From an uncultured Gammaproteobacteria bacterium (GTDB lineage: Bacteria; Pseudomonadota; Gammaproteobacteria; UBA9214), in NCBI GenBank assembly GCA_963748215.1, contig CAVVHS010000009.1:224001-288000 (forward strand): 64,000 nucleotides of DNA, given 5' to 3'. The notes beneath the pieces were generated by a model. It was given only the letters and a program-made list of their open reading frames with translations, was not told the origin of the DNA and did not search any database. Both the position numbers and the translations under genes were made by a program. Numbering within the stretch: position 1 is the stretch's first letter; every line of letters begins with the position of its first letter. Positions 54,805 to 59,118 of this stretch are shown here, one piece after another.

Positions 54805-55974
54805 ATGCACCTGCACGAATACCAGGCCAAGCAACTGTTCGCCGAATACGGCATACCGGTTCCCGACGGCCGGCTGATCACCCGTAGCGATGATATCGAT
54901 GCAGTCGGCGCCGGTTCCGGTGCCTGTGTCGTCAAGGCCCAGGTCCATGCCGGTGGCCGCGGCAAGGGTGGCGGCGTGCGGCTGGTGAATAACCGTGACG
55001 AGCTTGCCGCTGCGGTTGCAGCGCTGCTCGGCAGCCGGCTGGTGACCCGGCAAACCGATGCGGCCGGCCTGCCGGTCGGCAGCGTGCTGGTCGAACAGAC
55101 TGTCGACATCGCGCGCGAAATCTATTTCAGCATTGTGGTGGATCGCAGCCGCGAGCGTCTCATGCTCATGGCCTCATCGGCCGGTGGCATGAATATCGAG
55201 GAGGTGGCCGCCACCGACCCGGCCGCGATTCTCACCGAGCTCGTCAATCCCGCGGTTGGCCTGCAGGGCTACCAGTCCCGCAACCTCGCCTTTGGTCTCG
55301 GTCTGCAGGGCAGCCAGATCGGCGCCTTTGCCCGGCTGCTCGATGCCGCCTGCCGGCTGGTGCAGGCCTGCGACGCCAGTCTGCTCGAGATCAATCCGCT
55401 GGTGGTGACCGGCGACGGGGAGCTGCTGGCGCTGGATGCCAAGCTCGATATCGATGACAACGCGCTGTTCCGTCATGCGGAGCTTGCCGCGCTGCGCGAT
55501 GCCAGCCAGCAGGATGCGCGCGAAAACATCGCGCAGCAGCACGGGCTGAACTACATTCGCCTGACCGGCAACATCGCCTGCATGGTGAATGGCGCGGGTC
55601 TCGCCATGGCGACCATGGACATTATCAAGCTGCACGGCGGCGCACCGGCCAATTTTCTCGACGTCGGCGGCGGCGCCACCGCCGACAAGGTTGCCGAGGC
55701 CTTCAAGATCATACTGTCCGATCCACAGGTCGAGGCCATCCTGGTCAATATCTTCGGCGGTATCGTGCGCTGCGACCTGATTGCCCAGGGCATCCTGCAG
55801 GCGATCGGCGAGGTCGAGATAAAGGTACCGGTGGTGGTACGCCTGGAGGGCACCAACGCGCAAGCGGGTCTCGCGCTGATTGAACAGTCCAGCCTGGCGG
55901 TGGTGACCGCCAGCGACCTGGCCGGGGCGGCGGACAAGGTGGTCGCCGCGGCACAGGGCGGCAGCGCGGTATGA
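54805..55974 (+). CDS. sucC: Succinyl-CoA ligase beta subunit
   Basis: [45 protein letters not shown]. Confidence 0.98.
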
Positions 55975-56843
55975 GCGTACTCATCGACAGCGGCACCCGG
56001 GTGATCTGCCAGGGCTTCACCGGCGCACAGGGCACCTTTCATTCCCAGCAGGCGCTTGATTACGGCACGCAACTGGTCGGCGGCGTAACGCCGGGCAAGG
56101 GCGGCCAGACCCATCTCGGTCTGCCGGTGTTCAACACGGTAAAGGACGCGGTCGGCGCCACGGGCGCGGATGCCACGATGATCTACGTGCCGGCCGCATT
56201 CGCCGCCGATGCCATCCTGGAAGCGGCCGCTGCGGGCATTGGCCTGATCGTGTGCATCACCGAAGGCATTCCCGTGCTCGACATGTTGCGCGTCAAGGCC
56301 GTGCTGCGCGAAACAGACGCACGGCTGATCGGCCCCAACTGCCCGGGCATTATCACCCCGGGTGGCTGCAAGATCGGCATCATGCCCGGTGTCATTCACA
56401 CCCCCGGCAGCATCGGCATCGTCTCCCGCTCCGGCACGCTGACCTACGAGGCAGTGTTCCAGACCAGCCGCGAGGGTTTCGGCCAGAGCACCTGCATCGG
56501 CATCGGCGGCGACCCGATCCGCGGCATGGGCTTCATCGATTGCCTGCAGCTGTTCGAGGCCGATCCGGGCACGCATGGTATTGTCATGATCGGCGAGATC
56601 GGCGGCACCGACGAGGAGCACGCCGCGGCGTACATCCGCACGCAGGTCCACAAGCCGGTAGTCGCCTACATCGCCGGCGTGACGGCGCCGCCCGGCAAGC
56701 GCATGGGTCATGCCGGCGCCATCATCAGCGGCGGCCAGGGCACGGCGGCGGCCAAGATCGCCGCCCTGGAGGCCGCCGGTGTCACCGTGGTGCGTTCGCC
56801 CGCGGATATCGGTGTCGCCATGCAGCGGGCGATGGCAGGTTGA
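55971..56843 (+). CDS. sucD: Succinyl-CoA ligase alpha subunit
   Basis: [26 protein letters not shown] phospho-His motif. Confidence 0.98.
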
Positions 56844-56888
56844 ATTTTCTTCAGGCAGCCGCATCGGTTTCTAAGTGTTTTTTTGGTT

Positions 56889-57400
56889 GCTGGTTTCGCC
56901 CCGTCGGGGCGAGGTACTTTTCTTTGCTCCGCCCAAGAAAAGTACCCAAAAGAAAGGCGGACCCGAAGGCTTGCCCGACCAGTCATCTGCGATGTCTGGT
57001 CGGGTTCCCTGCGCTTCTCGCCGGTTTGGGCGCTCGCCGAACTCGCAGGATTTGCCGCGCCTTCCGGCTAGCAAATCCAGCTCGACAGGGCGGCTCGCTC
57101 AATCCCAAACCGGCTGCGATGCTCGGCTGCGCCTGACGGGGCTTTATGCGGCCACCCCCGGTCCCGTTGCCCGCGCCGAGTACCGCAGGCAAGCCGGGAA
57201 AAAGGCGCGCACCCTGTCCGAGGCAAGCCGGAGCGGGATTGCAAATCCCGCTCCGGCTCCGAGTTGTGCGCGCCCCGGCTTGACGAGGAACGCAGGGCAT
57301 CCGGCGTCAGCCGGCGCGGGCACCGGGTGCCCTTCTCTTTGGGTACTTTCTCTTGGGCGGACGCAAAGAAAAGTATCTCGCCCGACAGGGCGAAATCTGC
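56889..57400. repeat. Inverted doublet of a ~250-nt structured unit (MITE/REPIN-like or structured ncRNA)
   Basis: ~75-bp imperfect terminal inverted repeats (56889-56965 vs 57324-57400). Internal conserved linkers and covarying stems in both halves. Confidence 0.85.
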
Positions 57401-57459
57401 GATGTAAACTTCACAGCCTCAATTGCAAAGAATCTTGCAGGAAATAAGACTCCCGAACC

Positions 57460-59118
57460 ATGACATCAGCACAACAACAAACCAAGGGCCTCCGCATTGT
57501 CATGGCCCAGCTCGACTTCCTGGTCGGCGCCATTCCCGCCAATGCGCGCAAGATCGTGGAGGCCTGCAATGCGGCACGCGATGAGCACGCGGCCGACGTG
57601 GTGGTGTTTCCCGAGCTGGCACTGACCGGTTATCCGCCGGAAGACCTGCTGTTTCGCCAGCATTTCATGGAGCATGTGCAGGCCGAAATCGAACGCCTGT
57701 GTCGCAGGATCAGCGGCATTACGGCGATCGTCGGCTGTCCGTTGCAGGAAGGCCGGCTGCTGTACAACGCTGCGCTGGTGATCCGCGAAGGCGGCATCAT
57801 TGCGCAGTACAAAAAAGAGCTGCTGCCCAACTACAGTGTGTTCGACGAAAGGCGCTATTTCACGCCGGGCGGGCAGCCGTGTGTCGTCACGCTCGGCGGG
57901 ATACCGGTCGGCATCACCATCTGCGAGGATATCTGGCAGGCCGGCCCGGCACAGCAGGCCGCCGCGGCAGGCGCGCGACTGCTGCTCAATCTCAACGCCT
58001 CGCCGTTTCACGCCGGCAAGCGCGACGAGCGCGAGCAGGTGCTGGCGTTGCGTGCGCGCGAAAACGACCTTGCCATCGTTTACGTTAACCTGGTCGGTGG
58101 GCAGGACGAGCTGGTATTCGACGGCGGTTCGTTCGTCGTCGACCGGCAGGGTGCGGTGACGCAGCATGCGCCCGCCTGCGTCGAGGGCCTGTACCCGGTC
58201 GATATCACGGCGAGCGTGCCGGCGCAGCCGGTCGCCGCCGACTGCGCGCCGCGCCAGGTGCTGGAGGCGGCCGTTTACGACGTACTGGTACTGGGCGTGC
58301 GCGACTATATCCGCAAGAACGGTTTCGACGGGGCGGTGCTGGGCCTGTCCGGCGGTATCGATTCGGCGCTGACACTGACGCTGGCAGTGGACGCCATCGG
58401 TGCGGAGCGGGTGGAAGCGATCATGATGCCGTCACGCTACACCGCGCCGATGAGTCTCGAGGATGCGCGCGCCGAGGCCACGGCACTGGGCGTGCACTAC
58501 CGGGAAATCCCCATCGAACGGCCGTTCGAGAGTTTCCTCGAGGTGCTGGCGCCGGTGTTCGCAGGCCTGGCCGCGGATACGACGGAGGAAAATATCCAGG
58601 CGCGCTGCCGCGGCATCATCTTGATGGCGATTTCGAACAAGCAGCGCCGTATCCTGCTGACGACCGGCAACAAGAGCGAAATGTCGGTCGGTTATGCCAC
58701 GCTCTACGGCGACATGGCAGGCGGCTTCGCGCCGCTCAAGGACGTGCCGAAACTGCTGGTCTACCGGCTGGCACGCTACCGCAACACCCGGGCGGCGGTG
58801 ATCCCGCTGCGCGTGCTGGAGCGTCCGCCGTCAGCGGAACTGGCACCGGACCAGAAGGATGCGGACAGCCTGCCGCCCTACGCGATACTGGATCCGATCC
58901 TGGAACGCTATATCGAGCGCGACATGAGCGTCGAACGCATCGTGGCGGACGGGTTCGACGCCGCAGTGGTGGGACGTGTCGCCAGTATGGTCGATACGAA
59001 TGAATACAAGCGCCGCCAGGCGCCACCCGGCGTGCGCATCACCCAGCGCGCCTTCGGCCGTGACCGGCGTTACCCGATCACCAGCGGTTACCAGAACTTC
59101 CAGAACGAGGGCGACTGA
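57460..59118 (+). CDS. nadE: Glutamine-dependent NAD+ synthetase
   Basis: Nitrilase domain (FPEL..GYPPEDL, ICEDIW) plus synthetase domain (GLSGGIDS, TGNKSE, GYATLYGD). Confidence 0.98.
   Translation: MTSAQQQTKGLRIVMAQLDFLVGAIPANARKIVEACNAARDEHAADVVVFPELALTGYPPEDLLFRQHFMEHVQAEIERLCRRISGITAIVGCPLQEGRLLYNAALVIREGGIIAQYKKELLPNYSVFDERRYFTPGGQPCVVTLGGIPVGITICEDIWQAGPAQQAAAAGARLLLNLNASPFHAGKRDEREQVLALRARENDLAIVYVNLVGGQDELVFDGGSFVVDRQGAVTQHAPACVEGLYPVDITASVPAQPVAADCAPRQVLEAAVYDVLVLGVRDYIRKNGFDGAVLGLSGGIDSALTLTLAVDAIGAERVEAIMMPSRYTAPMSLEDARAEATALGVHYREIPIERPFESFLEVLAPVFAGLAADTTEENIQARCRGIILMAISNKQRRILLTTGNKSEMSVGYATLYGDMAGGFAPLKDVPKLLVYRLARYRNTRAAVIPLRVLERPPSAELAPDQKDADSLPPYAILDPILERYIERDMSVERIVADGFDAAVVGRVASMVDTNEYKRRQAPPGVRITQRAFGRDRRYPITSGYQNFQNEGD

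Follow-up and report, generated by a model that had tools for sequence, protein, structure and literature searches.

The gap between sucD (55971-56843) and nadE (57460-59118), in a 64,000-nt stretch of DNA from an uncultured Gammaproteobacteria bacterium (GTDB lineage UBA9214; GenBank assembly GCA_963748215.1, contig CAVVHS010000009.1, positions 224,001 to 288,000; hereafter the window), houses an inverted doublet of ~250-nt units, A and B, which have a common architecture and different helix sequences (Table 1). The extended TwoAYGGAY family is where the doublet fits best, as a new form that lacks the AYGGAY hairpins. We give somewhat better than even chances to the explanation that this AYGGAY-less, divergent doublet works through an RNA-level fold on the strand that runs from its centre outwards (the centre-out strand), with a triple-helix pseudoknot at the 3′ end. 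This explanation builds on architecture, copy number and distribution, on covariation, on the kinship of the terminal module and on polymorphism between relatives, all of which were directly observed. Both flanking genes were confirmed by Pfam. The two long open reading frames (ORFs) that cross the doublet gave no Pfam match, in agreement with an initial annotation, made from the sequence alone, that had seen no credible ORF in the gap.

That annotation had also described structured units in inverted orientation, with similar outer ~75 nt that each carry hairpins, and with conserved linkers between helices that differ in sequence and keep their pairing. All of this was borne out. A repeat finder recovered outer arms (56889-56965 and 57324-57400) complementary at 74-95%, the hairpins 56913-24/56935-46 (12/12 bp), 56974-87/56991-57004 (13/14 bp) and 57226-40/57244-58 (15/15 bp), and the helix 57020-30/57104-14 (11/11 bp); a further helix, 57190-98/57274-82, was read directly from the sequence as CAAGCCGGG/CCCGGCTTG. 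Upon alignment of unit A with unit B, the linkers were conserved and the helices between them different. Folding of unit A compared to shuffles gave z = -5.3 as DNA on the + strand and z = -5.4 as RNA on the - strand, and in either case 0/200 shuffles folded as well as the native sequence.

We ran RNAalifold separately on 20 A-type and 24 B-type copies drawn from many loci. The two consensus structures agree, each comprising a GC hairpin at the outer end (H1), a second hairpin of 14 bp (S1), a closing stem between the inner end of the unit and the stretch immediately inward of the terminal module, a small variable hairpin and a long rod. The rod base is a conserved imperfect helix between two near-identical linkers, and the middle helix of the rod is free in sequence with its pairing kept. 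In the A set, 96.8% of cells were paired, compared to 91.4 +/- 0.3 in shuffles, and 23 pairs were changed on both sides, compared to 8.5 +/- 1.5 in shuffles and 2-8 in slid controls; this test is somewhat favoured, as the tested structure came from the same alignment, and with related copies the shuffle count does not equal a probability. Double-sided changes were found in 3/5 pairs of the stem that joins the S1 loop to the tail of the module (S2), and the variable helix of the rod showed 7-9 double changes at four pairs. In B-type units, the closing stem carried 5-10 double changes per pair. Covariation in the A-type, B-type and parsed-module sets supports the earlier proposal that the fold is under selection. 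The pseudoknot between CCCTG and CAGGG that had been suggested for both units did not survive comparison, being kept in only 6/20 A-type copies, with the CAGGG side varying in 14/20 without compensation.

The terminal module carries a third-strand feature. Its tracts are A/T-rich and 8 nt long, and we were able to parse all three of them in 121 out of 210 distinct modules. The first and second tracts are reverse complements of each other in 119/121 parsed modules, and the third mirrors the second in 114/121 and repeats it directly in 0. The base pair flanking S1 (N:N′) is Watson-Crick in 112/121 modules, with all four pair types represented. Between the S1 loop and the 5 nt behind the third tract, the mean longest Watson-Crick run is 3.94, compared to 2.99 +/- 0.08 with shuffled partners, and new loop/tail pairs turn up among sequence variants of the module. 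We found six sequence variants of the first tract, two of them from unrelated genomes and recovered by a pattern that does not impose the mirror; all six keep a third tract that complements the first in parallel orientation, in unshifted register. As an alternative, the third tract might pair with the first in another hairpin, which across the six variants needs register shifts of +1, -1, +1, +3, -1 and -2. Because each tract variant would need its own register shift, we dropped this reading in favour of the mirror rule.

Mirror repeats are a hallmark of triple helices. The three-way covariation of the 3′ pseudoknot would be the signature of such a helix, and the end module appears to belong structurally to the intrastrand-triplex class. 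This class includes the BoxC/PIT/TMECO repeats; they adopt a DNA triplex in vitro, and the account of Holder et al. (2015, PMC4666352) gives no known function or transposase for them. As described there, those repeats resemble our module in their succession of pyrimidine tract, loop, purine tract, short loop and mirror purine tract, and in being intergenic and multi-copy, with some inverted pairs and no transposase known. They differ in the G/C-rich 9-nt tracts of the TMECO consensus. Here, in contrast, the hairpin loop pairs with the tail to form a pseudoknot, the motif makes up no more than the end module within a structured unit of 250 nt, and the module has no sequence match in E. coli genomes.

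The initial annotation could not assign the doublet to a named family, a view that no longer holds: beyond the tie of the third-strand feature to the BoxC/PIT/TMECO class, the terminal module and the scaffold connect it to TwoAYGGAY and extended TwoAYGGAY. A scan of 31 different loci placed the Rfam model of TwoAYGGAY, RF01731, next to the same ~85-nt terminal module in six of them, all from other genomes. Three of these matches (L078, L061 and L079, from Solimonas and a related metagenome-assembled genome [MAG]) score 50-61.5 bits against a cut-off of 43; the other three (L098, L087 and L132, together a third Solimonas locus, a Pseudomonas and a Thalassocella) lie below the cut-off at 38-42 bits. 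The matches sit directly beside the module on the centre-out strand, opposite to the outer-to-inner reading, with the module 3′ of the match. In Solimonas, the unit has the same order as here (H1, knot, closing stem, small hairpin and rod), and the RF01731 junction shares short motifs with it. TwoAYGGAY as set out by Weinberg et al. (2010, PMC2864571) is also alike in its basal stem with a multi-stem junction, and has the same strand sense relative to the module.

A closer likeness is to the RNAs described by Li et al. (bioRxiv 10.64898/2026.09.22.753630, 24 Sept 2026), who report Pseudomonadota TwoAYGGAY RNAs with an elongated basal stem, three more hairpins and a 3′ pseudoknot. In their account, these extended RNAs occur at a median of 11-23 copies per Pseudomonas genome and in doublets, 68.4% of them divergent; they look mobile, their function is unknown, and the idea is mentioned that the AYGGAY loops sponge Csr/Rsm proteins. 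The units that we describe match this account as ~250-nt, multi-copy, intergenic units with an elongated basal stem, extra hairpins and no linked gene, and further in their 3′ pseudoknot and terminal hairpin, their mostly divergent doublets and a copy number that varies among relatives. The present doublet is divergent in the sense of that preprint, as the two centre-out strands point apart. Unlike the RNAs described there, our units are without the two AYGGAY-loop hairpins that name the family, and their inner ends, 19 nt apart, leave no room for the 5′ short-repeat arrays of Pseudomonas. The survey as presented in the preprint comprises Pseudomonas and genomes with RF01731 matches, and the genus of our source genome lies outside it. 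We found no mention of a triple helix in its main text.

We also recorded the occurrence of CsrA (PF02599), which is present in the source genome, in 4/4 genomes with RF01731 matches and in Methylocucumis, and which was not found in four betaproteobacterial carriers of AYGGAY-less units, a small sample of incomplete assemblies. This comparison set the genomes of L099, L109, L071 and L131 against the source genome (G000) and those of L078, L061, L087, L132 and L081. A rule by which AYGGAY-less variants track the absence of CsrA did not come out cleanly.

A BLAST search of the element against the source genome found 10 places, so that the doublet is not single-copy, an outcome on which the earlier reading had hinged. 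Eight of these places hold A+B doublets, of which two have damaged ends; the remaining two are a solo A unit and a fragment located where a contig begins. The copies are 73-93% alike, and 10/10 are intergenic, between co-directional, convergent or divergent neighbours and often just behind stop codons. A-type and B-type units are separate lineages that recur together and are each conserved across genomes, suggesting that the A+B pair was the unit amplified.

The 510-nt element of the sucD-nadE gap is also present in relatives. Elsewhere in the genus, 16/24 genomes match it, each between 1 and 49 times, compared to 0/16 single genomes sampled from the other families of the class. Relatives also have solo units that stop at the same inner boundary, and tandem and back-to-back arrangements occur as well. 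When we searched a species-level genome collection with a 20-nt outer-arm pattern, at least 120 stretches matched, in Beta- and Gammaproteobacteria, at least two of them by chance and without the module (L122, L138). Named genera among the matches listed are Thiobacillus, Acidovorax, Variovorax, Polaromonas, Hylemonella, Xanthomonas, Lysobacter, Solimonas, Pseudomonas/Ectopseudomonas, Methylobacter, Crenothrix, Alishewanella and Aggregatibacter. A stricter pattern demanding all three tracts was present in 22/401 evenly drawn class genomes and 21/320 genera, compared to 0 for the reversed pattern. The 76 loci with a module divide into 48 with a single module, 25 inward-facing pairs, 2 back-to-back pairs and 1 tandem, and 22/25 inward-facing pairs span 418-665 nt. 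Searches of E. coli genomes (5,426) and of phages gave no match to the module, and a plasmid search gave four short end-module matches, in a Ralstonia megaplasmid and three Pasteurella records, none of them annotated.

Two loci from these searches stand somewhat apart. In Alishewanella maricola (L062:1477-1866), two modules in direct orientation lie within 130 nt downstream of four tandem tRNA genes, and a weak YrlA-like match overlaps the tRNAs. A partial module was found in a MAG labelled Oscillospiraceae, a Firmicute label (L134), which may reflect a binning error or transfer.

Comparison of orthologous sites revealed that the element varies between close relatives. The sucD-nadE gap measures 20-50 nt in 7 members of the genus. 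In G008 the doublet occupies it in unchanged orientation, and in G045, G044 and G002 homologous flanks enclose an inverted doublet (L182-L185 compared to window 56844-57459); G049 has an end-module stump, and G048 and G051 a nested arrangement. G045 and G044 are the closest relatives by sucD identity, and the pattern of doublet orientation does not follow sucD similarity, pointing to repeated flips or re-insertions. At a second site (C5b), the element is absent in G045 and a single end hairpin is left in G008; at a third (C6a), half an end hairpin is left in G008 and an internally deleted copy is found in G044. Because each end hairpin is a palindrome, the two ends form inverted and direct repeats at once, which can explain both flipping and clean loss. 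Seemingly empty orthologous sites did not show where the element inserts. What is left in G008, one end hairpin at one site and half of one at the other, marks these sites as deletion remnants and not virgin targets that would reveal an insertion junction, and the G045 site is too diverged for the junction to be read. We hypothesize that some agent acting in trans carried the A+B pair, as a single piece, to about 10 intergenic sites in this genome, and that the pair was later flipped in place and decayed through deletions.

Smaller insertions into the module were seen as well. A 72-75-nt insert with a hairpin at each end occurs five times in the source genome at the same spot of the module's purine arm (G000:C2:32311-32385, C2:6988-7059, C3:725-774, C5:41446-41515 and C6:1038769-1038840), none of them in the window. 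Its orientation relative to the purine arm is constant, whichever hairpin arm carries it, and at the orthologous C6a site it is present in G044 and absent in G000. This insert has the look of a mobile element in its own right, small and site-specific and perhaps related to the IS200/IS605-PATE type. In Acidovorax sp. SRB_14 (L119:2026-3305), a ~1.3-kb insertion in the loop of the main hairpin carries a 433-aa open frame that by eye resembles an IS481/IS3-type integrase-fold transposase, and the same junction is found in L064. The main-hairpin loop is also interrupted in L073, L076, L101, L120, L126 and L139, and it may be an insertion hot spot.

The choice of strand follows from reasoning on standard H-type pseudoknot topology. 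Read from the centre outwards, each ~250-nt unit would consist of closing stem, small variable hairpin, long rod and 3′ module, the rod having a conserved imperfect base and helices that vary and stay paired, and the module an H-type pseudoknot followed by the GC hairpin. The parts of the knot would come in the order stem A 5′ arm, 8-nt pyrimidine tract, stem B 5′ arm, stem A 3′ arm and stem B 3′ arm, as in a classical H-type pseudoknot, and the third tract would be loop 1, passing across the major groove of stem B. This 8-nt pyrimidine loop would lie parallel to the purine strand of the 14-bp stem and match it base for base, in exact register for U.A-U and C+.G-C triples, which is the requirement of a major-groove triple helix. 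On this topology, the 14-bp stem, the loop-tail stem and the third-strand register could coexist only on the centre-out strand. Rfam's TwoAYGGAY model runs on that strand, and since it has the same strand in related units, we used it to set the sense of unit A. We infer that the centre-out strand is the functional one, that the element acts as RNA, and that its triple helix does form.

RNA H-type pseudoknots with major-groove triples are found in telomerase RNA and in the SAM-II and preQ1-II riboswitches. The predicted knot would share with them a pyrimidine loop 1 that runs in parallel along the purine strand of stem 2, registered so that U.A-U and C+.G-C triples can form. Unlike them, it belongs to a repetitive, mobile-like element with no ligand or gene association, and its stem is predicted at 14 bp, with 8 possible triples.

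Several observations weigh against the RNA-level explanation. The family-defining AYGGAY hairpins are absent, the rod tip being one hairpin in which GGA is not conserved, and RF01731 does not match. The Rfam check proposed with the initial annotation returned, at permissive thresholds on window 56500-57800, chance-level matches only, with no RF01731 at E up to 10; RF01731 was found in 0/37 genus genomes, but control genomes were silent too. The 3′ pseudoknot described by Li et al. is equated with our module by position only. A purine-motif DNA triplex or H-DNA on the other strand would satisfy the mirror rule just as well. Wobble pairs give a mixed answer on strand: among minority mismatches, 40 cells in 29 pairs would be G.U on the centre-out strand, compared to 20 cells in 17 pairs of the reverse kind, a suggestive asymmetry that is contradicted by three conserved pairs (columns 93-126 and 141-259 of A2 and 94-270 of A3), which in most copies are G.T on the other strand and A.C mismatches on the favoured centre-out strand. 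Compensatory changes in palindromes can come from template switching without selection, whereas mirror repeats cannot. The sole RNA data are short metatranscriptome contigs from three runs (100-216 nt, 88-95% alike, low depth), which come from copies in relatives, carry no strand information and may include DNA carry-over; one of them spans the A/B junction (57028-57239). A sigma-70-like promoter was sought in and near the element, and none was found.

The element is probably mobile, and here too some results point the other way. We saw no target-site duplication at copies with readable flanks, as had been stated for the window copy, and neither profile searches of the genome nor inspection of the neighbours in 80 loci yielded a mobilising gene. 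Within 2 kb of the module in these 80 loci from other genomes, no protein family was recurrent; apparent clusters of recurrent neighbours were spurious ORFs running through the repeat itself. DUF559 is absent from the genome, its 2 IS110 genes are on other contigs, and no pair of ends lies more than ~700 nt apart, that is, far enough to enclose a gene. A miniature inverted-repeat transposable element (MITE) would be in keeping with the ~75-nt inverted ends, but no duplication and no full-length relative with the same ends were found, and we set this candidate aside.

The initial annotation had also compared the doublet to REPINs. REPINs and RAYT transposases were reportedly described by Bertels and Rainey in 2011. 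The likeness lies in inverted doublets of hairpin-forming repeats that apparently spread as a pair, with singlets also existing; in contrast, the units here are ten times longer and have no GTAG-type REP core, and the RAYT-like genes of the genome are flanked by other REPs. The idea of a mobile doublet stood in so far as the element is multi-copy, gene-less and mobile-looking, with A+B pairs at 8/10 places, and the link to RAYT was not found. Alternatively, the doublet may be read as a pair of structured non-coding RNAs (ncRNAs). The genome encodes five RAYT-like Y1 transposases (PF01797), and a search of the flanks of four of these genes, one of an identical pair included, found other REP families or none and never this module.

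The five PF01797 genes are located at G000:C2:111830-112333, C3:109354-110121, C9:315993-316769, C9:333326-334102 and C9:71345-72160, and two of the C9 genes, 17 kb from each other, are identical. Classic GTAG-type REPs, with 152 short BLAST matches in the genome, border the C2 gene. A REP of this type is also found in the doublet centre in G048 and G051 (L186, L189).

The strongest competing explanation, which we regard as possible if on the unlikely side, is that the element acts at the DNA level, as a single-stranded DNA (ssDNA) fold, a cruciform or H-DNA with a purine-motif intrastrand triplex like that of BoxC/PIT/TMECO, recognised by a transposase, a recombinase or the replication machinery, with any RNA being incidental. 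In the outer-to-inner direction, the order pyrimidine-purine-mirror-purine is the class II layout of Hoyne/Maher (2000/2002) as given by Holder et al. (PMC4666352), and according to that 2015 paper this layout forms a DNA triplex in vitro. The three conserved G.T pairs fall on the same strand. Amplification of A+B as a unit in many copies, in-place inversion, deletions between palindromic end hairpins and the occurrence of every gene-orientation context among the copies would all suit a DNA element, as would the 72-nt hairpin-ended insert, always at one position of the purine arm. Against it, topology would leave the third, purine tract on that strand only 1-2 nt behind the 14-bp stem with its covarying 5-bp extension, so that the mirror register would need this extension to melt; with the loop-tail stem formed, the third tract would run across the minor groove. 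The lack of a partner enzyme, with the Y1 genes beside other REPs, DUF559 absent and no widely spaced pair of ends, and the lack of a visible target duplication also count against a DNA-level role.

We consider it quite improbable that the doublet is a two-way terminator or insulator, or an mRNA 3′-end stabiliser, that became repetitive by happenstance. REP and ERIC elements are known to serve as terminators, insulators and mRNA stabilisers, and the copies here are all intergenic and often just after stop codons. At either outer end (+ strand, 56893-56915; - strand, 57396-57375), H1 and the T-rich tract behind it score as a terminator-like site for transcription that enters from outside, each site facing inward, so that incoming transcripts would meet the GC hairpin and then a U-rich tract. 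However, the terminator scan called 3 sites compared to 1.6 +/- 1.5 in shuffles, the core stem and the U run are five bases apart, and some copies lie between divergent genes (C6a). A 170-nt covarying rod, a mirror tract and a loop-tail stem would all be unneeded for termination. A decayed local inverted duplication with no family and no selection has next to no probability, since it has nothing but the inverted symmetry in its favour and is already refuted by copy number and distribution (10 genomic copies and hundreds in relatives), by A and B lineages conserved across genomes and by covariation far above controls.

Table 1. Parts of the sucD-nadE doublet, in window coordinates
Feature	Position	Strand	Basis and remarks
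Whole doublet	56890-57399		Unit A, 19-nt spacer and unit B (inverted); ends set by aligning the 10 genomic copies
Unit A (~253 nt)	56890-57142	- (proposed sense, centre-out strand)	Consensus fold of 20 copies; inner boundary as in solo A units
Unit B (~238 nt)	57162-57399	+	Architecture as unit A, different helix sequences; consensus fold of 24 B-type copies and A/B alignment
Terminal GC hairpin H1, unit A	56896-56912		Repeat finder and A-set fold (helix 1); unit B counterpart 57377-57393
14-bp hairpin S1, unit A	56913-56946		Repeat finder and A-set fold (helix 2); unit B counterpart 57342-57377
S1 pyrimidine tract, unit A	56918-56925		
S1 loop, unit A	56927-56933		
S1 purine tract, unit A	56935-56942		
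Third tract, unit A	56948-56955		Mirror of the purine tract; unit B counterpart 57333-57340
Tail, unit A	56957-56961		Pairs with S1 loop 56928-56932 (pseudoknot stem S2); A-set covariation (helix 3)
Closing stem, unit A, 5′ half	56962-56970		Pairs with 57131-57141; A-set fold (helices 4, 5)
Variable hairpin P4	56974-57004		Repeat finder; compensatory differences among copies
Long rod	57008-57126		Conserved imperfect base 57008-20/57114-26; variable helix 57021-30/57104-13; inner junction and hairpin (helices 7-9)
Central spacer between inner ends	57143-57161		Sequence and alignment of genomic copies

Two features of the window copy are particular to it or vary among relatives. The outer arm of unit B is recombinant, its first tract and loop being A-type and its second and third tracts B-type; the resulting main hairpin (57342-57377) has two mismatches, and its loop no longer matches the tail. 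This hybrid end looks like the product of gene conversion or crossover between the two ends of the doublet. The central spacer is longer in relatives, where ordinary REP-like sequence can sit inside it.

As to what the RNA-level fold would do, we favour the view that the 3′ knot and hairpin provide a nuclease-resistant, protein-recognisable RNA end. A more specific version, in which an RNA triple helix of eight U.A-U/C+.G-C triples in an H-type pseudoknot caps the 3′ end of a selfish, multi-copy ncRNA present across Beta- and Gammaproteobacteria and either blocks 3′ exonucleases or serves some enzyme as a handle for copying the element, we hold to be doubtful. If it were true, an exonuclease-blocking cap would be a bacterial counterpart of the ENE/MALAT1-type 3′ triple helices, and, riboswitches aside, no other triple helix in bacteria would be as widespread as that of the module.

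Since 2010, TwoAYGGAY had stood as an orphan motif, and only the preprint of September 2026 placed it in a larger mobile-like unit. Here, the scaffold and 3′ module persist without the AYGGAY hairpins, in a genus where the Rfam model matches nothing, indicating that the family is wider than RF01731-seeded surveys can see. Its conserved core is the end module together with the rod base, rather than the proposed CsrA-binding loops. The three-way covariation provides a testable hypothesis of a triple-helix pseudoknot and joins the literatures on BoxC/PIT "triplex repeats" and on TwoAYGGAY, which have so far been separate. Elements of this kind account for long, ORF-free, structured intergenic gaps and for in-place inversions between close relatives.

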